DNA from: a virus
Lineage: Duplodnaviria > Caudoviricetes
Direction: 5' to 3' (one strand)
IMG/VR virus record: IMGVR_UViG_3300006046_000017
Location: 1-29,791 of that record
Length of the DNA: 29,791 nucleotides
This document shows positions 5,443-26,553 of the stretch, piece by piece (position 1 is the first letter of the stretch; each line of letters starts with the position of its first letter). Below the pieces are notes generated by a model that saw only the letters and a list, made by a program, of their open reading frames with translations, did no database searches and was not told the DNA's origin. A program made the translations under genes and the position numbers.

Positions 5443-7515
5443 TCACGCGTAGCCGGCGGGAAGCGACACGAGTGGCGGGCGTCCTGGCCCACCTTGGCCG
5501 GGCAAAGCGGGGCCAGTTCCCTGCGGTTGCGTCATCGGAAGCTCGGCGTTCTGCGCGCCTTCATCTCCTTGAGCTGCCGGGTCTTCTTCACCCGTTCCGC
5601 CCGGCTGCGGGGGTGGCGCGGCGTTCATCATCTGAATCGAAGGGATGTTCGCGGTAAACGCTTCGGTCAGGTCGATGCTGTCGTCGATGGCCTCGATCAA
5701 TTTCTGTCCCAGCCATTGCGGGTTGACGCCTGGAATCTGCATCAGGAACGGCACCAACTGCTGTAGTGCCTGCTGGCGCTGAATCTTGTTCGGGCGGCCG
5801 TTGGAGCCTGCGACGATCTCCAAATACATTTCGGCCTGAATCTGCTGGCGGTTCATCTGCGGCCAGACGGAGCCGGGGCCTGCAATCTCTGTCACGGTCT
5901 GCGGGTCCAATTCCGCCAACATGATCTGACTCGCATCGCGCGCGAGGATCGACAGGAAGTCGTTCAAAAGGTCGGCCTCCGCTTCAAGTGCGGCGGTGCG
6001 CGCCTGCTCGGCGGTGGCGACGGCCGTCGCCGTGTCGCCGGAGCTGCCACCAAAGGAGGGCTCGGCCATGCCGACCGTTTTGTACACGTCGTCCATGATG
6101 GTCTGCGACTCGTACAGGTTCGGGTCAACCCCGATCTTCGGCAGCGGCTGGATCAGGTCTAGCACCTTGTTGCCCGGCATCATGCCGTCGAGTTCAACTA
6201 CCGCGTTGGCCTCGGCGCCGGTGAGCGCGGACTTGTCGCCATCCGACAGCGCGCCCTTCGGCGTCACGTAGCCGGGTCGATTCGCCTTGCGATGTTCGCG
6301 CAGCGCTTCCTTCTGCCGGTTCAGCTCCATCTGCTGCGGCGTCATGTTGTTCACATCGGAGGGCGGGAACAGTTTCGTCGGGTGTTCCAGCTCGTTGAAA
6401 CACAGCGCGTAAATCGGGAAGAACCGCTCGACGGTAACCTCGGGGCCTTCCGGGTCCTTCAGGAAGTCCTTGTACCCGTCGCACATTTCAAACTTCAGGC
6501 CCGTGGGCTTGTGGTACATCATCCAGACGCAGCACAGGTCGTTGTGCGTGCCGGAAATGTCCGCGCGTGGGTTCTGGCGATACTCAACGCCATTGGTGGA
6601 GTAGGCCGCGTAATTTGCGCCGCCGGCCGGCGTCGCCACACCGCACAGGTCGAGCTTGTAGAACTCCTTCACCTCATCGGGCGTCATGAACAGCTCTTCG
6701 GTCAACCAGTCGGCGCCGATCCAGCCATCGAGCGCGATGCACTTCCTGTCCGGGATCACGGCGGTCGGGCGCGGGAAGTCGAACACCAGGCCCTCGCGAA
6801 TAATGACCGTGGCTTCCTTGCGCAGTTGTTCGACGGCAAGGCGCAGCTCTTCGGTCTCCGCGTCGTATGTGGTCTTGTCACCGTCCGGGCCAACTTCATC
6901 CATCAAGCGCTGAATGTGCGCGAGGCGCTGCTGGCTGTCGGCGATCTTCGCCTTGTTGTCAGGGGATAAGTCGGTCTCACGCTGAAACCCCAACTTGACG
7001 TACCCGACAGCGGTCTGCACGGCGGAGCGCACGCAGCGCTTCATCTGCGATTTGAACGATGGAATCTGTTCATCGATGTAGTAGTGAAAGCAGCACTCCA
7101 GCGTCTTGCCGAGCTTCTTGTACATCTCCTCTTCGGCCTTGCCCTGCTGCACGTCCTGCATGATCGCCATGGCCTGCATGGGGTCGGGCTGACCCTGCGC
7201 GGCCATCTGCAATTGCTGCATCGTGCCGTCCCAGAACTTGTATTTCATGCGCGGGCGGCACTTGGCGAGCGCGCGCGGGTTCTTCGCGTACAGGCTCGCG
7301 ACCTTCTGGCGTACGAATCGCTGCGTGATGTTCACGCGGTAGTTGGTCTTCGGCCATGAGCGTGCCGCGCCCGTCCATGCAACCTCCATGTCATCGAGCA
7401 TCTGCTTGAACGCGGGGGAGAAGTGCTTTTTGTCAGAGCGTACTTCCTCCTGCATTTCGAGCACGAGGGCGGCGCGCGCTTCAGGTACATCGATGTCGTA
7501 ACCCTTGATAATCAT
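5443..7515 (-). CDS. portal protein
   Basis: ~690 aa from ATG 7515 overlapping the terminase stop (TGATG); VNIT...LYAKNP, GYVKLGF, TATAV and Gln/Pro-rich tail; directly after terL. Confidence 0.85.
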   Translation of the reverse strand: MIIKGYDIDVPEARAALVLEMQEEVRSDKKHFSPAFKQMLDDMEVAWTGAARSWPKTNYRVNITQRFVRQKVASLYAKNPRALAKCRPRMKYKFWDGTMQQLQMAAQGQPDPMQAMAIMQDVQQGKAEEEMYKKLGKTLECCFHYYIDEQIPSFKSQMKRCVRSAVQTAVGYVKLGFQRETDLSPDNKAKIADSQQRLAHIQRLMDEVGPDGDKTTYDAETEELRLAVEQLRKEATVIIREGLVFDFPRPTAVIPDRKCIALDGWIGADWLTEELFMTPDEVKEFYKLDLCGVATPAGGANYAAYSTNGVEYRQNPRADISGTHNDLCCVWMMYHKPTGLKFEMCDGYKDFLKDPEGPEVTVERFFPIYALCFNELEHPTKLFPPSDVNNMTPQQMELNRQKEALREHRKANRPGYVTPKGALSDGDKSALTGAEANAVVELDGMMPGNKVLDLIQPLPKIGVDPNLYESQTIMDDVYKTVGMAEPSFGGSSGDTATAVATAEQARTAALEAEADLLNDFLSILARDASQIMLAELDPQTVTEIAGPGSVWPQMNRQQIQAEMYLEIVAGSNGRPNKIQRQQALQQLVPFLMQIPGVNPQWLGQKLIEAIDDSIDLTEAFTANIPSIQMMNAAPPPQPGGTGEEDPAAQGDEGAQNAELPMTQPQGTGPALPGQGGPGRPPLVSLPAGYA

Positions 7516-18985: not shown

Positions 18986-19204
18986 TCATGGCCCTGCATC
19001 CGGCCAGCACTCACCCGCAAAGCGGGTCAGCGCCTCGTACGCCTCACGCTCCAGGCACACCCGTTCGATCCGCATCTTGGGCGGCTCACGGGGATCGGGG
19101 TTTTCGGGGCGGGACACCATCAGCCAGAGCTGGCCGGTGTCGGGCGTGTACTGCACGTACACGCCATCACCTAGATAGGCACTCCGTGCACTCTCGTCAG
19201 GCAT
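18986..19204 (-). CDS. small phage protein
   Basis: AGGAG RBS; YLGDGVY...LWL...LE.E.YEAL. Confidence 0.7.
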   Translation of the reverse strand: MPDESARSAYLGDGVYVQYTPDTGQLWLMVSRPENPDPREPPKMRIERVCLEREAYEALTRFAGECWPDAGP

Positions 19205-19465
19205 CGCAGCTCCTTCGCGATTCGTCCAGCTCTCAGCAGGGATCAGGCAGCCTAAACTTATGTTGGACGTCTGGCATAGGACTTTATACGTACACGTGTA
19301 CACCGTGCACGGTCGTCACCTGTAGTGCTTCTGCAACGGAGCTTCTGGCTGCGCCAGACTGCGCTTCTGCTTTGCAGTTGGCGTTTTGGAGTAGGGGGAA
19401 ATTTTGGAGGTGGGTCGAAGATCAGATTGGACGCGCGCACTCCGGTGGCGGCCGGGGGGCGGACC

Positions 19466-19526
19466 GCATTATGTAAAGCAATGGAACCGCGCTGCATTAT
19501 GGCAAGTGGCTAGCTACTGCATTATG
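19466..19526. repeat. three direct repeats GCATTATG
   Basis: at 19466, 19494, 19519 in a ~400-bp non-coding gap. Confidence 0.7.
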
Positions 19527-19601
19527 TGAAGCGGATAACCCTGCGCCTTGGCCACATGCCTAGAAGGGATGTGGTGCGCCACCCTATGATATTGATTACC
19601 C

Positions 19602-20081
19602 TCAGGAATCTAAGGTTAGCGGCTGTCTGCCTGCCCGCTGTCTACCCTCTCGGGCTTCGAGTTCGCTGCGAGTGGCTGCAATCAGTTCGGTGAGTTCGCC
19701 CACCGACAACTCCCGCACACTCTTCGCCGGCAGCACGGCGCCGGCCCTCAGCTCGCCGGACACTTCCAGCGCGGTGCGGATGGCGAGCACCTGGGCGCGC
19801 AGGTCCGTCTGTGGTGTGTTTAAAATTTCTTCGAGACATACCGTGGCTCTCTTCCCAAGTCGCCGCACCCGCTCACCTGCCAACGCTTCCACTTCTCGCC
19901 GGACATCATCGTCCCGACAGAACGCCTGCACGGCCCTTTGAGTGGGGAAGCCGGCCTTGGTCCTCACAAACGATTGAGAGGCGCCAGCAGCCAGCAGCAT
20001 GACAGCGAGTTCCGTATCAGGCCCGGACTCTGAGCCCTCCTGATCCGTCCATACGGGTACGTCCTTAGACGTCTCTTCCAT
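19602..20081 (-). CDS. helical DNA-binding protein, candidate terminase small subunit
   Basis: GAGGA RBS before ATG 20081; HTH-like N-terminus, QVLAIRTALEVSG helix, ELSVGELTELI tail; first gene of the leftward arm. Confidence 0.45.
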   Translation of the reverse strand: MEETSKDVPVWTDQEGSESGPDTELAVMLLAAGASQSFVRTKAGFPTQRAVQAFCRDDDVRREVEALAGERVRRLGKRATVCLEEILNTPQTDLRAQVLAIRTALEVSGELRAGAVLPAKSVRELSVGELTELIAATRSELEAREGRQRAGRQPLTLDS

Positions 20082-20162
20082 CTTGTCTTTCCTCGTAGAC
20101 ATCTGACGTCTATAGACGTCTAACTACCAGTATCAGGACGTCCTGAGACAGACGTATCAGGA
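20066..20162. repeat. cluster of GACGTC-based palindromes and GTATCAGGA repeats
   Basis: GACGTCTATAGACGTC 20105-20120, TCAGGACGTCCTGA 20133-20146, GTATCAGGA twice. Confidence 0.7.
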
Positions 20163-20350
20163 TGGACTCATCCTCCCGCCCCTCCTCCCCTGCGAGCTTG
20201 CGCCTTTAATCGCCAGAACTTCAAGCTCTTACCAGTACGGGACTTGTACGTATGCTGTCGGCCGTGCTACACGTCACACCGGGCCGAGCTACGTCTGTGT
20301 GAGAGCAGACACCGTGAGGCCCGACACTACAACCTGAATCGGAGCTGTAC

Positions 20351-20692
20351 ATGACTGACAAAGAGAACGAGAAGCGCATCGCCCGCGAGCGCTCAATAGT
20401 GCGTGGCGTGATCCGCGCCCTTCGTGCTGCCGGCTGGCAGCCGCACAACGTCCACGACGGCGGCGATTGCGTACAGACGCGCACTGAGTCCGCGATGATT
20501 GACGCCGTGTTTGCCGTGGACGTCTCCACTGCGACCTTCAAGCATCCCGACGCGCCCAAGCGCTTCTTCGTTTCGTTTGTCTGCGGCGAGGGTGACGACA
20601 TCATTGCGGACCACTCGGCGCCAGACGCTGACCCGCACGCGTTCGCCGCGACCATTGACGCCTACATGCGCAAGGCCGGCCTGATCGGCTGA
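20351..20692 (+). CDS. early-type hypothetical protein
   Basis: GGAGCTGTAC-ATG; 113 aa. Confidence 0.8.
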   Translation: MTDKENEKRIARERSIVRGVIRALRAAGWQPHNVHDGGDCVQTRTESAMIDAVFAVDVSTATFKHPDAPKRFFVSFVCGEGDDIIADHSAPDADPHAFAATIDAYMRKAGLIG

Positions 20693-20758
20693 GCGTCGCG
20701 TGATGCGTCTCCCCGTGGGGGCGCATCGCGAGGCATTCCGCCTCTCGGAGCTGTCCAC

Positions 20759-20938
20759 ATGAATCCCTTTTCGTTCCACGTTTCCGCGTCCAACTATCGG
20801 CGCCGTCCGTCCGTGCGCTTTGTCTCGCATTGTGAGCGCTCGCGCCGCCGTGAACGCGCGCTCAATACGCTGTCCGTTGTTTTCGCCGTCTCCGGCTTTG
20901 TCGCCGCGTGCGTCGCGGCTTGGGCGGTGCTCTCGTGA
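20759..20938 (+). CDS. 59-aa protein with C-terminal transmembrane helix (not in ORF track)
   Basis: GGAGCTGTCCAC-ATG; ends LSVVFAVSGFVAACVAAWAVLS; stop overlaps next GTG. Confidence 0.7.
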   Translation: MNPFSFHVSASNYRRRPSVRFVSHCERSRRRERALNTLSVVFAVSGFVAACVAAWAVLS

Positions 20939-21213
20939 GCGCCGCCCCGATCATCGTCCGCGTCCGCACCATCGACCGTTTCAGCAAGTCGCGCACCTTT
21001 CGCACCCTTGCGGGCGCGCAGAAGTTCGCCGCGCGATGGGTCGGCGAGACTCCCGAACTCGGCTCGTGCTACGCGGTCAGCGCTGACGGCGTGGCCACTG
21101 TGCGCGCGAGCGTGCCGGTCGCCGACCTGTTCCCCAAGCTGAACGCCACGCCGTCCGAGGAGGGCCCGGACCCTGCGCGCGAGTGGTACGACACGGGCGC
21201 CGAGCTGCGCTGA
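20935..21213 (+). CDS. hypothetical protein
   Basis: GTG start coupled to upstream stop (GTGA). Confidence 0.7.
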   Translation: MSAAPIIVRVRTIDRFSKSRTFRTLAGAQKFAARWVGETPELGSCYAVSADGVATVRASVPVADLFPKLNATPSEEGPDPAREWYDTGAELR

Positions 21214-21293
21214 CTTGCGCCGCCTCTTGCATCCTCACGGGAGGGTGCAAGGGGAGACGCAATCTCGCGCCTCATCACTCGGAGCTGTATCAA

Positions 21294-21479
21294 ATGCAAA
21301 ACGTAAAAACCGAAGTCAAAGGCAACTTGCTGACGATCACCGTGGACTTGTCCGCGCGTCTGGGCCCGTCGAGCACGGGCAAAACGATCATCGTCGCGAG
21401 TTCAAACGGTAGCGCGAAGATTCCCGGTCACGATGGCGTGCGCTTCGGCCTGAACGTCTACACGGGGCGCCCGCTGTGA
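21294..21479 (+). CDS. small beta-rich conserved hypothetical protein
   Basis: GGAGCTGTATCAA-ATG; LTITVDL...GPSSTGKTIIVASS.G...GLNVY. Confidence 0.8.
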   Translation: MQNVKTEVKGNLLTITVDLSARLGPSSTGKTIIVASSNGSAKIPGHDGVRFGLNVYTGRPL

Positions 21480-21730
21480 GCGCCCGTCGCTGGGACCTGT
21501 CCGACTACCGCAAGCACCGCGACGCGCACGTACGTCGTGCACGCTACGCGTCGCGCATGGTTCACGAGACCCAAGGCGCGACGCGTGAGACGTGGCGCGA
21601 GCATCGCCGGCAGCACGTGAAAGCCGCACGCCGTGAGAACTGGTTACTTGTGGGCCAGTCGCGCGCGATCAGCGCCTCGCTGTTCCTGCGCAAGACCATT
21701 GGCTACGACCAGAGGGCGCGCGCGGGCTGA
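21476..21730 (+). CDS. basic hypothetical protein
   Basis: GTGA coupling. Confidence 0.65.
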   Translation: MSARRWDLSDYRKHRDAHVRRARYASRMVHETQGATRETWREHRRQHVKAARRENWLLVGQSRAISASLFLRKTIGYDQRARAG

Positions 21731-21809
21731 GGGGCTTTTCAGTCGGGCTGGCGTGTGAGAGCGCCAGCCCTTCTGTGAATCCCTTCCGCAATCAACTGGA
21801 GCTGTACCC

Positions 21810-22421
21810 ATGACCCCTGAACAAAAGCGCGACTTTCGCGCCGTCGTTGCCGCTATCGCCAAGGCGTTAGGCGGTACCGTCACGCGCGCACCTGATCCCG
21901 ATGAGAACTATTGGAACGCCAAGCTAACCACGGGCGCCGCGTTGCCCCTGTGGATGAGCTACAGGAGCCATGAGAAGAAAATCACGGTGAGCCTGGACCT
22001 GCCGCCGATCAACGACCGCGACGGCGGCGCCCGACATCAGAGCTGGTCCGATGTCATCGGATACGACGAGAAGAAGAACGGCACGGCGCCCACGTATGAA
22101 ATAGGCGTGAGCTTCGAGCGCGGCGCCGATGCAATCGCGCGCGACATCACGCGCCGACTGATTCCCGGCGCGACCATCCTTTACACGCGCGCCCTTGCTC
22201 GTAAGGCATCGGCCGAGGAGTACGCGCGCGGTACTGCCGCGACCATCGCGAATCTGTCCAAACAACTGAACACGGAACCGCGTGGCGCGCGCTTGTACTG
22301 TGGCGGATGCACGCTCGAAGTGTCCGGGCCGGATTCCGTGCGCGTCGATCATCTGTATGTCACGGCCGAACTCGCCGCCAAGATCGCCGCGCTCGTGATG
22401 GCAGAGAAGGGTGGCGAATGA
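21810..22421 (+). CDS. hypothetical protein
   Basis: GGAGCTGTACCC-ATG; 203 aa. Confidence 0.8.
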   Translation: MTPEQKRDFRAVVAAIAKALGGTVTRAPDPDENYWNAKLTTGAALPLWMSYRSHEKKITVSLDLPPINDRDGGARHQSWSDVIGYDEKKNGTAPTYEIGVSFERGADAIARDITRRLIPGATILYTRALARKASAEEYARGTAATIANLSKQLNTEPRGARLYCGGCTLEVSGPDSVRVDHLYVTAELAAKIAALVMAEKGGE

Positions 22422-22726
22422 GCGCCGCCGAGCTGGACAAGTACGGACCCAAGCCGCCGCAGGAGATCACGCGCGAACGGTTCTGGGACATGCTCGAAGT
22501 TCTGCCGCCGTGCAAGTGGCAAGGCATGGGCCAGCGCTTCGAGAGCTTCCACGTTTCCGAGCGGCTGTCGGGCGACGTGGTGTCATGGTTCTGCCGCGTG
22601 GGTGAGCGGTACTTTCAGGTTGACCAAGAGTCCACGCTTCCACGCGGGGAACTTGAGCGCATGGTCAGCGCCGAGCTGGCGCGCGTTGTTGTCGGGGAAC
22701 TGTCGGGCGGACTGCGCCACCACTAA
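22418..22726 (+). CDS. DUF1419-like protein
   Basis: ATGA coupling; EITRERFWDMLEVLPP...F..SE.LSG.V.S.F. Confidence 0.6.
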   Translation: MSAAELDKYGPKPPQEITRERFWDMLEVLPPCKWQGMGQRFESFHVSERLSGDVVSWFCRVGERYFQVDQESTLPRGELERMVSAELARVVVGELSGGLRHH

Positions 22727-22773
22727 CGCACTGACGAGGGGGCAACCCCGAAACGCCGCGAGGCGTATGCGTT
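22725..22773 (+). ncRNA. type I hammerhead ribozyme 1 (predicted cleavage after GUA, 22767)
   Basis: AACGCA-CUGACGA-GGGG(GCAA)CCCC-GAAA-CGCC(GCGA)GGCG-UA-UGCGUU: full core and three stems. Confidence 0.95.
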
Positions 22774-22794
22774 TACACATTTGGAGCTGTACAC

Positions 22795-23040
22795 ATGCCG
22801 AGAAAAAAGAAGATCGAGGGCGCGCACGAGACCAACGAGGAATTCGTTGCGCGCGTCATGGACGCCCCCAAGTCGGGCCCGCTCATGCAGGTATTCGTAA
22901 TCGAAGCGATGCGCCGGTACGCGGAGCTGTGCGCGAACGGCGACATCGACAAGATGAACACGGGCCCGATCAGCGGCGCGCACTGGAAGCGCTGCGCGGT
23001 CGAGCTGCGCGAGGAGCTGAACAAACACCTAGGCGAGTGA
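22795..23040 (+). CDS. hypothetical protein
   Basis: GGAGCTGTACAC-ATG; 81 aa. Confidence 0.8.
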   Translation: MPRKKKIEGAHETNEEFVARVMDAPKSGPLMQVFVIEAMRRYAELCANGDIDKMNTGPISGAHWKRCAVELREELNKHLGE

Positions 23041-23108
23041 CAACGGTCAAGGGACGCGCACGGACGCGCGCACCCTTCGCCGTTTTCACACGTCTGGAGC
23101 TGTACAAA

Positions 23109-23474
23109 ATGGGTACCTATTTCACGCAAGGCGCCAACAAGGCCGCCATCATCGCGGAGTGCGTTCAATCATGCCGCGCCGAAAAGTACGCGATAAACCG
23201 GGACAACTTGTGGTGCGTCGCGAACACCACCATCGACGGCAAGCCGCACAAGTACGTGATCCTTTTCAAGCTGGTCCCGGATACCTACGGTTGGGGATAC
23301 AAGCCCATCAGCGAGGATATGGGCCCCGCGTACTACGACTGCCCCTTGGAGTACGTCAAGGACGTGGAACCCTACGAGCCCGTGGCATATGCGGCCGAGT
23401 GGCGCGCGAAAGTGTACTCACGCAATGGGGAGAACCGCGCGGGATTCCTCGCACAACGCACGCTGTCCCTGTAA
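23109..23474 (+). CDS. DUF6927-like protein
   Basis: GGAGCTGTACAAA-ATG; WGYK.ISE.MGP.YYDCP...YA.EWR motif. Confidence 0.7.
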   Translation: MGTYFTQGANKAAIIAECVQSCRAEKYAINRDNLWCVANTTIDGKPHKYVILFKLVPDTYGWGYKPISEDMGPAYYDCPLEYVKDVEPYEPVAYAAEWRAKVYSRNGENRAGFLAQRTLSL

Positions 23475-23522
23475 CCCGCTGACGAGTCCCGCGTAGGGAC
23501 GAAACGCCGCAAGGCGTCCGGG
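23475..23522 (+). ncRNA. type I hammerhead ribozyme 2 (predicted cleavage after GUC, 23518)
   Basis: CCCG-CUGACGA-GUCCC(GCGUA)GGGAC-GAAA-CGCC(GCAA)GGCG-UC-CGGG. Confidence 0.95.
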
Positions 23523-23689
23523 ATTGAAAAACGTGTCAAGCGATTTTTGTTCGGGGTTGCCGGCCGTCGGGCTTCCCTGAATGGACACGGAACAGGGCGC
23601 GCGGTCGGTGAGGCTAACTAGCGCCATGAGAAAATATCCCCTCGCGCATCACTTTCGGTGCGCGCGCTGTTACACAACTGGAGCTGTAC

Positions 23690-23914
23690 ATGACCAACGA
23701 AAAGATGGCGAAATTGCTGGCCGACTTGGAACGCACGGAATCGAAATTGCTGCGCGTCATTACCCGGTGGATGAAACTCCGGGGACAAGTGAAACGGGCC
23801 GGCGCGAAGCTCGACAAGGGGCTAGCGGAGCGGCTGGAGAAATTGCCGGGCGCCATGGACGTGAGGAAAATGCCGATCAAGCCGAAGGCGTGGCCGGCGC
23901 GCAAACACAAGTAA
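23690..23914 (+). CDS. small basic helical protein
   Basis: GGAGCTGTAC-ATG; 74 aa. Confidence 0.75.
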   Translation: MTNEKMAKLLADLERTESKLLRVITRWMKLRGQVKRAGAKLDKGLAERLEKLPGAMDVRKMPIKPKAWPARKHK

Positions 23915-23966
23915 GACCGCTGACGAGCTGGTGAGATTCCAGCGAAACCCCGCGAGGGGTCCGGTT
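23915..23966 (+). ncRNA. type I hammerhead ribozyme 3 (predicted cleavage after GUC, 23961)
   Basis: GACCG-CUGACGA-GCUGG(UGAGAUU)CCAGC-GAAA-CCCC(GCGA)GGGG-UC-CGGUU. Confidence 0.95.
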
Positions 23967-23983
23967 AAAAACAGGAGCTGAAG

Positions 23984-24265
23984 ATGGCTGACGCGAACGA
24001 ATACACCTTCGAGCACCTCGAAGCCGCCGCGTGCATGTGGGAACACGTGTTGCTGCAACTCAGGTGCCACCGGGAGAAGGGGAACCCGTGGGAGGACTAC
24101 CGCGAGGCGTACGGCATGTGTGCCCTGCGGGAAACCGTGATCCGTCACGCCTCCGTGCTCGAAGTGGCGTACCAAGCGGCCGTCGCCAATGGGTACGACA
24201 AGGCGTTTGATTGGGAGTACGTACCGAAGTACATGGAGGAACACATCGCGCGGATTCTCGCGTGA
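23984..24265 (+). CDS. acidic hypothetical protein
   Basis: AGGAGCTGAAG-ATG; 93 aa. Confidence 0.8.
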   Translation: MADANEYTFEHLEAAACMWEHVLLQLRCHREKGNPWEDYREAYGMCALRETVIRHASVLEVAYQAAVANGYDKAFDWEYVPKYMEEHIARILA

Positions 24266-24295
24266 TGGCGGAGCCGTAACCGGCGCAACAACGGC

Positions 24296-24330
24296 GAGGA
24301 ACCCCGGCCTAGTGCCGGGGTTTCTTTTTA
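24296..24330 (+). terminator. intrinsic terminator ending the early cluster
   Basis: AACCCCGGC-CTAGT-GCCGGGGTT then TCTTTTT, between convergent genes. Confidence 0.85.
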
Positions 24331-24570
24331 GGCGTCGTGGACGCCGTGCTCGATGTCGAACTCGTGGAGCCATTCGCGATAGGGGGACAGGTTCTCTAAC
24401 CCTGTCTTGTCGAGAAACATGCACCAGATACCAAGGTTCATTTCGGCCATACCTTGCTCCCACAGTTGCCACGTCTGCACGGGGTTGAACACGAGCGCGG
24501 CGGCCTCGGTCTGCGTTATCCCAGCGCGTTCGCGGGCGCGTCGTATTTCATCGGGGGTCAATGGTTTCAT
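24328..24570 (-). CDS. XRE-family HTH protein
   Basis: TPDEIRRARERAGITQTEAAALV.....TWQLWEQG...M. Confidence 0.9.
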   Translation of the reverse strand: MKPLTPDEIRRARERAGITQTEAAALVFNPVQTWQLWEQGMAEMNLGIWCMFLDKTGLENLSPYREWLHEFDIEHGVHDA

Positions 24571-24582
24571 TCATGATCCTGA

Positions 24583-24657
24583 TGGTGGACCCAGTAGGGA
24601 TCGAACCTACGACCTCTCCCATGTCAAGGGAACGCTCTACCGCTGAGCTATGAGTCC
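24583..24657 (-). tRNA. trnV: tRNA-Val (GAC) with encoded CCA
   Basis: GGACTCA/TGGGTCC acceptor, TAGCTCAGCGGTAGAGC D-arm, TT-GAC-AT loop, GGTTCGATCC T-arm, ACCA end. Confidence 0.95.
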
Positions 24658-25062
24658 GGGGCGCGGAGTCTACAATCTGTCAACGCATTCCGGGCAGTCT
24701 GAGAGGCCGGCCGGCGGGCCCCGATTCTACACAGAGAGTCAGACGAAAGTCGCGCGGCCCGGTGACAAAGTGCAAAAGACCTTAAAATGTAGGCTCCCAC
24801 AGTACGACCAACATACTTGACATGTATCGGTAGACCCCTGTAGAACAGCGGTCGCCGCCACCGGCTTTTCGTAAGTCGCTGGAAACAAGGGAAATAGTAG
24901 ACTAAACCATTGCCATCGCTTGCACATGCGGGCGTGGCAGACACATTGCAGAGTCATATGGTGGTAGGATGAACCTTACCCAGACAACGATGTGCAAGTG
25001 ATAGTCGCGTGTCAGATGGGAAATCCTATAAAACAAGCCATTTCTGAAAATCGGAGCTGTAC

Positions 25063-26553
25063 ATGAGAGCCGCAACAACTGTTTTTACTGAGACGCTACT
25101 GCGCAAGATGAGCGCGGACCCCAAGCATCGGGGCAATGACTTCACTGACGCCGGATGCCGGAACCTCGTGATCTACATCGCGCGCGATGGCGTCGTGACG
25201 TTCACATTCCGCAAGCGTGTGAAGGATGCCCCGAAGGGGCGCATCTTTGAGGGGCTGGGAACATGGTCGGCCGCCTTCACCCTGGTCCAAGCCCGCGACG
25301 CATGCGCCGTGCGTCGCACTGAACTGTCACAGGATGGGTTCAAGCCGAGGAACGAGAAGAAAACCGTTATCGCCTCGATCCCGTTGTACGAAGCGGCGCG
25401 GACGGCCGGCGACAAACAGGCGAGTCGTCGCGGCGCACCGCTGTCGCCGAAGTGGCGCGAGTATCTGAACCGCTTCAAGGTGGTCTTTCCGAACTTGCTG
25501 GGACGCGACGTGAACACGCTGCGGTACTCCGACTTCATCGACGGAATGGCGGAGTACGGTCGCCGTGAGTACACGGCGAAGGGTAAGGCGTGGGACCCGC
25601 GCGTACTGCGCCCGATGATGGTCTGCATGATGCCGATGTTGCGCTGGTACACGAAACGCTATCGGCTCGATCCGCGAGTGCTTGACGATATAGTTCCTGA
25701 TGACTATGAGCCGGACACTCGCTACCTGCTCCCCGGCGAGTGGCAAGCGTGCGCCCCGCACATTGATTCACTCGATGGGTTAGACAAGGACTGCGGTCTC
25801 TTCGAGCGCTTTGTTCTGTACACGTGCGTCCGATCCGAGCAAGCGCTGGGCATGAAATGGGACGAGCTGCGCTGGGGTGATTGGAGCCACTGGCGCGACG
25901 AGGATGGCAACGAGCACCGTGCGCTGATTTGGATTCCGCCGCGTGAGCGTGTAAAGGGCCGCGCCAAAGCGGGCGGCGAGAAGTTGCCGCGCCGCGTACT
26001 TCTCACTGGCGAATCGCTGGCGATCCTTGAACGATTGCGCGCCATTTGGGAGGAGAACGCGAAGCTCCCAGAGCACGAGCTGTGGGATGGCGTATTCACC
26101 GAACGGATGGTCCACCGCTGGCGTACGGCGCGCACAGAGATGCAGCGTGGCATCGAGGAGAAGGCGTGTACGAAGCCGTGGGATCGCATGGCGTTGCGTC
26201 ACACGCATACGACGTACCTCGCGTTTCTGGGATGTCCGAAGCGGCTGCGCACACTGAGCATGAACCACACGCCAGACAAGGACGAGGGCGCGGACGTGAC
26301 TGATCGGTACACGGGGGCCGACCCGGTGAGGCGGTTCATGTCGAATGATCCGTTGGCCGAGTTGGCGCCGTGGCACGCGCGCCTTCACAAGCTGATCCGT
26401 GACATCGAACGCGGCAACATTCACTCGAATGATCTGGTGTCGATGCAGGAGACGATGCGCGACGGGCAGGCGTGCCGCGATATGTGCGACCAGTACAAGG
26501 TCCACCGCCGGTTCATCGAGGTCGAGGAGACGAAGCTGCGCGCCGTCAAGTAA
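25063..26553 (+). CDS. int: tyrosine integrase with P4-like arm-binding N-terminal domain
   Basis: D...NLVIYI...G..TFTFR...GLG.W...TL..AR; catalytic R (TCVRSE), K (KGR), R (MALRHT), H (MNH), Y (DRY). Confidence 0.88.
   Translation: MRAATTVFTETLLRKMSADPKHRGNDFTDAGCRNLVIYIARDGVVTFTFRKRVKDAPKGRIFEGLGTWSAAFTLVQARDACAVRRTELSQDGFKPRNEKKTVIASIPLYEAARTAGDKQASRRGAPLSPKWREYLNRFKVVFPNLLGRDVNTLRYSDFIDGMAEYGRREYTAKGKAWDPRVLRPMMVCMMPMLRWYTKRYRLDPRVLDDIVPDDYEPDTRYLLPGEWQACAPHIDSLDGLDKDCGLFERFVLYTCVRSEQALGMKWDELRWGDWSHWRDEDGNEHRALIWIPPRERVKGRAKAGGEKLPRRVLLTGESLAILERLRAIWEENAKLPEHELWDGVFTERMVHRWRTARTEMQRGIEEKACTKPWDRMALRHTHTTYLAFLGCPKRLRTLSMNHTPDKDEGADVTDRYTGADPVRRFMSNDPLAELAPWHARLHKLIRDIERGNIHSNDLVSMQETMRDGQACRDMCDQYKVHRRFIEVEETKLRAVK

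Follow-up and report, generated by a model that had tools for sequence, protein, structure and literature searches.

The DNA analyzed here (the window) is a 29.8-kb contig of 29,791 nucleotides (nt), IMG/VR record IMGVR_UViG_3300006046_000017, from a temperate podovirus-like phage, and our subject is its cluster of 11 small plus-strand genes (g1-g11, 20351-24265), whose junctions are formed by hammerhead ribozyme motifs, long hairpins and coupled overlaps. The terminase, capsid and tail genes are located on the minus strand, and the structural genes are followed by a tRNA-Val(GAC), a tyrosine integrase, a repressor-like gene and a YqaJ exonuclease. The ten junctions of the cluster comprise three coupled -4 overlaps (GTGA at 20935 and 21476, ATGA at 22418), four long hairpins and three type I hammerheads (Table 1). 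Every one of them was confirmed where an initial annotation of the sequence had placed it. The ribosome-binding site (RBS) GGAGCTG, which that annotation took to be shared, lies 3-7 nt before all 8 uncoupled starts of the cluster, against a Markov expectation of 0.008. Outside the cluster, GGAGCTG followed at this spacing by ATG occurs once on the plus strand, before the integrase, and never on the minus strand, where one gene carries it at 2-nt spacing (19213); a phage-wide role for the motif was rejected on this distribution. It had also been claimed that every junction is either an overlap or a structured element plus this RBS. Nine junctions are built this way, and the g9-g10 junction departs from the layout, with the predicted cut of hammerhead 2 lying 161 nt from the RBS and a promoter-like site in between. 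The single terminator predicted to close the cluster is present, and its DNA is matched in four relatives, although an automatic scan did not pick it up. A Pfam search of g1-g11 gave no convincing family, and an Atlas search with g9 gave nothing usable.

Table 1. Features of the small-gene cluster and the adjoining integrase region. Functions of promoter-like sites and cut positions are predictions.
Feature	Position	Strand	Description
P1, promoter-like site heading the cluster	20244-20273	+	TTGTAC, 17-18 nt, TGnTACAC
5' leader hairpin	20280-20323	+	at the probable transcript start; fold z -1.1, not significant alone
g1	20351-20692	+	113 aa; RBS GGAGCTG at 20341; phrog_4158, E 1e-11
Junction hairpin 1 (class B)	20692-20744	+	predicted RNase III cuts 20701/20702 and 20729/20730; 5'-terminal product hairpin 20730-20744 on refolding; matrix score -22.7, rung-shuffle p 0.006
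g2	20759-20938	+	RBS 20747; coupled to g3
g3	20935-21213	+	coupled start from g2
Junction hairpin 2 (class B)	21215-21273	+	predicted cuts 21225/21226 and 21253/21254; product hairpin 21254-21273; matrix score -23.7, p 0.20
g4	21294-21479	+	RBS 21281; coupled to g5
g5	21476-21730	+	coupled start from g4
Junction hairpin 3 (class A)	21729-21786	+	2x2 pyrimidine loop; predicted cuts 21741/21742 and 21775/21776; matrix score -25.9, p 0.51
g6	21810-22421	+	RBS 21798; coupled to g7
g7	22418-22726	+	coupled start from g6
Type I hammerhead 1	22725-22773	+	CUGA at 22731; GUA triplet, predicted cut after 22767; 6-bp stem I over the g7 stop, 4-bp stem II, GCAA loop, free U1.7
g8	22795-23040	+	81 aa; RBS 22783; phrog_7895
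Junction hairpin 4	23038-23088	+	bulged upper stem; poor RNase III score, -32.2
g9	23109-23474	+	121 aa; RBS 23096; phrog_21047
Type I hammerhead 2	23475-23522	+	CUGA at 23479; GUC, predicted cut after 23518; Rfam RF00163, E 3.5e-5
Conserved g9-g10 spacer	23523-23679	+	holds P2, an upstream CTAG motif and a leader hairpin; putative function
g10	23690-23914	+	74 aa; RBS 23680
Type I hammerhead 3	23915-23966	+	CUGA at 23920; GUC, predicted cut after 23961
g11	23984-24265	+	93 aa; RBS 23974
Intrinsic terminator closing the cluster	24296-24329	+	-23 kcal/mol fold; T run, 6 T in next 8 nt
tRNA-Val(GAC)	24583-24657		beside the integrase
Tyrosine integrase	25063-26553	+	496 aa, arm-binding type; cluster leader motif, RBS 25053; adjoins the tRNA

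Relatives were collected by pattern and protein scans, which returned 6 viral loci and 20 metagenome loci. Among the latter, one is the window itself, four are viral contigs found again, nine are too short on the cluster side and six were kept, giving a comparison set of 13 contigs (the window and 12 related contigs, designated by handles such as L010 where they must be told apart), the longest of the related ones being about 48 kb. Gene content and order vary widely over these contigs (52 rough families with 33 singletons, some of them spurious) while the layout is kept; the architecture is real and well conserved. Along the clusters hairpins tend to come first and hammerheads later, with L013 as an exception, a polarity that may be inherited.

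Run on both strands of the window, the full hammerhead descriptor finds three type I motifs, all within the cluster and all with the intact core (CUGANGA, GAAA and an NUH triplet at a three-way junction). Applied to two 48-kb phages of distant relationship and to 13 genome loci that had matched by chance, it finds none. Rfam model RF00163 scores hammerhead 2 at 32.2 bits, below the gathering score of 34, and does not list hammerheads 1 and 3; one copy in a relative passes. Altogether, 10 contigs hold 31 type I hammerheads, and there are three of type II. The core is invariant in a 26-sequence alignment, and stems I-III of the 31 type I motifs keep their pairing through several pair types, i.e., they covary. 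A subclass with a 4-bp stem II and a tetraloop, which includes hammerhead 1 of the window, retains an unpaired U1.7 and a loop-final A in 11 of 11 copies, the two partners of a tertiary contact described as rate-enhancing in the available text of PMC11875169; the remaining 20 type I motifs follow no clear rule of stem I-loop II contact. In 22 of the 31, CUGA is preceded by a stop triplet that ends 3-5 nt upstream of it (the reading frame was checked for the three in the window), so that stem I often overlaps the upstream stop. Similar prophage hammerhead arrays were cleaved in vitro (PMC3088659, in the portion available), and from their conserved cores and covarying stems we consider the ribozymes here very likely to be active. 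A decayed hammerhead, with CUGAUGA retained and stem II lost, lies after g10 in L010, orthologous to an intact ribozyme in L024. A further hammerhead, 81% identical over 64 nt to hammerhead 3 of the window, lies at about 6001-6061 on the minus strand of L008, a contig of 45% GC with no proteins in common with the window, hinting that the module may have spread beyond the clade.

The four junction hairpins of the window (at about 20693, 21215, 21729 and 23038) are more stable than their dinucleotide shuffles (z of -2.8, -3.4, -3.7 and -2.4, respectively). Over all contigs there are 34 non-hammerhead elements, mostly bulge-free ladders; in the first 18 rungs of each, G-U pairs number 60 vs. 7 for A-C, from which it follows that the hairpins act on the sense RNA. 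The ladders were scored against Escherichia coli in vivo pair counts for RNase III (PMC6212723 Table S4, the part of that paper used here), without the gap columns, so that the published thresholds apply roughly; 20 of the 34 reach -25.5. No other of the 39 long ladders in the window scores as high as hairpins 1-3. The register of hairpin 3 was set by homology, the matrix favoring one two rungs closer to the loop. The orthologue of hairpin 4, after g8 in L011, is a clean ladder.

After the bulged window hairpin 4 and the decayed L010 hammerhead were dropped, 32 elements remain. In their best register the 5' cut and the loop are separated by 11 rungs in 18 and by 10-12 in 29, compared with 17% and 29% at 11 rungs for shuffles. 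Eleven base pairs is the shortest reactive helix according to the available text of PMC1540722. Hairpins of this kind form the near-regular duplex of about 22 positions with at least 11 bp on one side of the cut that RNase III sites have, and window hairpin 4 does not. The pair boxes (proximal, pb; distal, db) were read from the 26 of 32 hairpins that can be anchored on a purine-purine mismatch. Position pb1 is G-C in 23 of them; pb2 is U-A or A-U in 18 and C-G in 1; db2 is U-G in 13 and db1 U-A in 7, the distal box itself not being conserved across species. The mismatch falls at C', the position where G-G is the commonest mismatch in E. coli. In class B, the hairpins with a G-A or A-G mismatch, RNA following the predicted 3' cut folds as a hairpin from its very first base in 13 of 14 cases and from one base earlier in 1 of 14 (shuffled tails: mean 7.7, maximum 12). 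When upstream bases are included and all classes are pooled, the same test gives a weak result (7 of 32, shuffle mean 2.7, maximum 7). On this fit to known substrates, cleavage of the hairpins by RNase III appears probable. As to their distribution, a class B pattern found no loci in the viral scan, and a class A pattern found three, two in a known relative and one an apparent chance match.

Both kinds of element occupy the same junctions. Between g5 and g6 the window carries a class A hairpin where L010, L024 and L027 carry a type II hammerhead, and after g10 a hammerhead stands in the window, L015, L024 and L034 and an RNase III-type hairpin in L012; the initial annotation had proposed looking for just this replacement at orthologous junctions. 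The junction before g9 holds a hairpin in the window and a hammerhead in three relatives, with differing upstream neighbors. Replacement between the same genes implies that both kinds likely cut one long message. Of the earlier idea that they are interchangeable cutters, the interchange has thus been borne out, and the cutting of the hairpins rests on their fit to RNase III rules. The companion idea of uniformly headed mRNAs holds in part. Leaders are of similar length: the predicted cut and the RBS are 12-24 nt apart in 25 of the 31 hammerheads (the other six precede the second promoter-like site) and 13-40 nt apart in the 32 hairpins. The ends would differ, 5'-OH vs. 5'-phosphate, and only the last 10-15 nt are in common. 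The mixture probably extends beyond the clade, judging from a type II pattern search of phages that returned 122 loci (one being the L010 contig, with some overlap): RNase III-like hairpins before a Shine-Dalgarno (SD) sequence number 18 on the ribozyme strand vs. 3 on the other.

Several observations weigh against cleavage of the hairpins by RNase III. The pb4 pair is G-C or C-G in 21 of the 26 anchored hairpins, violating the A-U/U-A rule found in vitro for E. coli and Aquifex; in the text available for PMC1540722, such pairs lower cleavage by the E. coli enzyme 7-14-fold in vitro without blocking binding, and they are tolerated at 21 of the 85 in vivo sites in PMC6212723 Table S4. Position A is U-G in 14 of 26 vs. 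1 of 85 in E. coli, and class A hairpins place a pyrimidine mismatch at pb2. Paired-rung shuffles are beaten at p<=0.05 by 11 of 32 hairpins only, and by one of the three clean ladders of the window (not by hairpins 2 and 3); hairpin 4 scores poorly, and just 4 of 18 class A and C products begin with a 5' hairpin. The matrix score largely rewards pairing, and the rules are those of E. coli. The hairpins are related by descent, and the counts are therefore not independent. A terS-like tree did not settle the direction of the swap.

Some of the same facts would be expected if the hammerheads cut and the hairpins were spacers that stay uncut, serving as binding sites for RNase III, as barriers to 3' exonucleases or as translation insulators. 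G-C or C-G at pb4 in 21 of 26 is a signature of substrates that are bound and not cut (PMC3867540, as far as available), the hairpins begin within a few bases of the stop codon, and one of those in the window scores -32. Against uncut spacers, the hairpins take the place of ribozymes at the same junctions, and an alternative fold starting exactly at the predicted 3' cut, as in 13 of 14 class B hairpins, is most readily understood if a 5' end is made at that base; we regard this explanation as unlikely. A different cutter in place of RNase III, either a self-cleaving fold not yet catalogued or a nuclease encoded by the phage, is improbable. It would account for hairpins at positions otherwise held by ribozymes, a setting that has yielded new ribozyme classes (PMC6765202, available text), for a fixed purine-purine mismatch in 26 of 32, for the two folds of class B and for the lack of any Rfam match to the hairpins; however, the elements are plain ladders in which few unpaired bases are invariant, the pairs that they conserve fall on the RNase III boxes, and no nuclease family was found among the cluster proteins of the window or its relatives.

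Transcription of the cluster probably begins at P1, which was matched by regular expression in 10 of the 13 contigs, and also by alignment, and occurs once per cluster. Its -10 element lacks the final T, a form that may resemble promoters of alphaproteobacteria. Relatives have hairpins of varied sequence at the position of the 5' leader hairpin. Upstream of P1 and of the divergent gene lies a C-rich block (20177-20225), conserved in 11 of 11 aligned contigs, which is possibly a packaging or late-promoter signal. The second promoter-like site, P2 (23627-23635), reads TGGTAWAAT in six relatives and has a weaker variant, TGAGAAAAT, in the window, which makes seven of the 13 contigs. Directly after hammerhead 2 comes a 65-nt segment (23523-23600) that is conserved and possibly structured; it would start at the predicted ribozyme-made 5' end and could be a small RNA. 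A promoter and a terminator for each gene, the arrangement that the initial annotation held to be incompatible with its view, were not seen, the promoter-like sites being P1 and P2.

Such an arrangement would resemble the promoter-early stem-loop (PeSL) elements of T4-type phages, with hairpins that attenuate or terminate and a promoter for each gene. The position from stop codon to SD and the variable small genes are indeed the same (PMC2839356, in the part available), and P2 is an internal promoter-like site. Nevertheless, a sigma-70 scan of 19000-25200 gave no sites (P1 was not picked up either), the P1 motif of the clade occurs once per cluster, and the four junction hairpins lack a T-tract, with 1-2 T in the 8 nt behind them; we consider this account very improbable.

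Genes are gained and lost between relatives, and the breaks often fall at the modules. L012 and L033 have flanks 93-95% identical and different genes in between: identity stops at a coupled start, returns for 19 nt at the leader before different genes, and resumes at the g4 leader. Four other contig pairs also break at the leader. The g5 hairpin of the window matches that of L014 as far as GGAGCTG, the genes beyond being different, which suggests a crossover at the leader. The g4 hairpin moves with g4, breaking near the upstream stop. The earlier proposal that the shared leader serves as microhomology is borne out by these leader breaks; the leader is not the only place of exchange, for breaks also fall at stops and coupled starts. 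Counting against the leader, elements at 48 junctions track the upstream and the downstream gene about equally (p=0.25), so that the 7-mer is not the sole exchange point; the same test rejects, as a general rule, that elements accompany the gene upstream of them. Leader flanks are more alike within than between genomes (0.57 vs. 0.44, 64 leaders, p 0.003). RTGAGCGCC is present at all three coupled starts of the window (20935, 21476 and 22418), and RTGAGC at 21 of the 32 coupled junctions over the contigs against a background of 10%, one of the L012/L033 breaks falling there. From the leader breaks, the leader flanks and the coupled starts together, the whole module of 55-80 nt, not the 7-mer only, is the likely exchange block, by a mechanism that we infer. 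That the modules act as exchange points at all is somewhat better than an even chance. RecT was found in both of two relatives tested and YqaJ in the window.

Each of these ingredients is known from elsewhere. In prophages, clustered hammerheads flank single genes or short blocks of varying identity, and processing to operon- or gene-length mRNAs was proposed for them, with cleavage shown for three arrays (Perreault et al. 2011, PMC3088659, available portion). The arrays here are similar in having several hammerheads around variable genes; in contrast to those, RNase III-type hairpins take up half of the slots, the two kinds of element replace one another at orthologous junctions, and the leader behind them is fixed. 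RNase III receives no mention in the available text of that paper. The early mRNA of T7 has five RNase III signals (PMC3867540, available text), and like those signals and the minimal substrate derived from R1.1 (PMC1540722, available text), the hairpins here lie between genes of a polycistronic phage message and have an upper helix of 11 pairs with G-C at pb1 and A/U at pb2; U-G is frequent at db2 (13 of 26). Unlike T7, the present phage is temperate, pb4 is mostly G-C or C-G, the hairpins are mixed with ribozymes and their cleavage is predicted. Mismatches in the junction hairpins are symmetric, unlike T7 R1.1, which has an asymmetric loop. PeSLs are repeated stop-codon-to-SD modules and exchange points for small variable genes (PMC2839356 and PMC4122927, in their available parts). 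As with these, gene gain and loss here break at the module, though not exclusively; whereas a PeSL combines promoter and terminator, no consensus sigma-70 promoter accompanies each module here, and the module apparently joins an RBS to an RNA cleavage site, with transcription from one or two promoters. The initial annotation knew of no description of the combination. Clusters of hammerheads among variable prophage genes have been described and interpreted as mRNA processing (PMC3088659, available portion), and T7 RNase III processing and T4 PeSL shuffling are likewise known; the interchange is apparently new, no paper on it having been found in the literature searched, mostly open papers, and the supplements of PMC3088659 and PMC5737381 may hold such hairpins. 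The main text of PMC5737381 does not mention RAGATH motifs by name.

An integrase adjoins the cluster, and alternating genes and hairpins are the usual form of attC arrays (PMC5737381, main text), so the hairpins might be attC-like recombination sites that act as single-stranded DNA in a cassette array. The pairing has a strong sense-strand G-U bias (60 vs. 7), unlike integron attC arrays, the 496-aa integrase beside a tRNA is of the arm-binding type and not IntI-type (its homologues carry PF13356), and hammerheads fill the same slots; this origin of the array is exceedingly improbable. The integrase leader (25050-25066) has a 17-nt stretch identical to the g1 leader, and in L012 the integrase leader is likewise in the style of the cluster. 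Integrases of relatives are 36 to 75% identical, and one relative has tRNA-Lys in place of tRNA-Val. A small helix-turn-helix (HTH) gene at 24328-24570 on the minus strand is convergent with the cluster terminator and adjoins the tRNA. On the other side of the cluster, 19602-20081 on the minus strand encodes a conserved HTH-like protein with a weak structural likeness to terminase small subunits (TM-score about 0.45, below the cut-off); should this gene mark the origin of packaging, the cluster could be close to a genome end. Cargo in the clusters of relatives includes a superinfection immunity protein, PF14373 (L015:1029-1214), and a protein matching phrog_3007 and phrog_947 (L011:7878-8492).

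Cluster DNA had no match among 50,697 named-phage records, and the two named phages nearest by terminase (44% and 40%) have no hammerhead. A scan with the single integrase protein found no viral relative. Three RNA contig sets from the study that supplied the window contained nothing but short foreign matches, which speak neither for nor against expression of the cluster. A first scan of genome contigs for a host prophage gave 58 pattern matches, none confirmed, and a second gave 13 loci, none with a valid hammerhead or cluster homologue. The integrase search returned a single taxon label among 20 matches, a Bryobacteraceae contig from a metagenome-assembled genome, which is insufficient to assign a host.

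We interpret the cluster as an operon of variable accessory genes whose transcript is cut by two exchangeable kinds of site, with a probability of roughly 65%. One long transcript would start at P1 (and P2) and be cut into pieces of one or two genes, the hammerheads cleaving themselves and the long hairpins being cut by host RNase III. Hammerhead products would then start with a 5'-OH 12-24 nt ahead of the RBS and class B products with a new 5'-terminal hairpin, and upstream products would retain 3' structure. 5'-terminal hairpins and 5'-OH ends slow decay of the RNase E type, and the products may thus be protected. The repeated blocks of element plus leader would serve as homeologous exchange points for a phage RecE/RecT-type system. 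A more specific version, in which RNase III hairpins and type I or II hammerheads are equivalent plug-in cutters yielding separately protected mRNAs, and the modules, leader and RTGAGC are recombination joints, is put forward tentatively, at slightly less than even odds. If true, the hammerheads of bacteria and phages would gain a concrete role as host-independent substitutes for RNase III sites, and mRNA processing in the style of T7 would be linked to gene shuffling in the style of PeSLs. Since one and the same gene pair is naturally separated by a hammerhead in some contigs and by a predicted RNase III site in others, interchangeability can be tested directly, with rnc dependence expected of one kind only, and the modules would supply natural, compact insulator parts.

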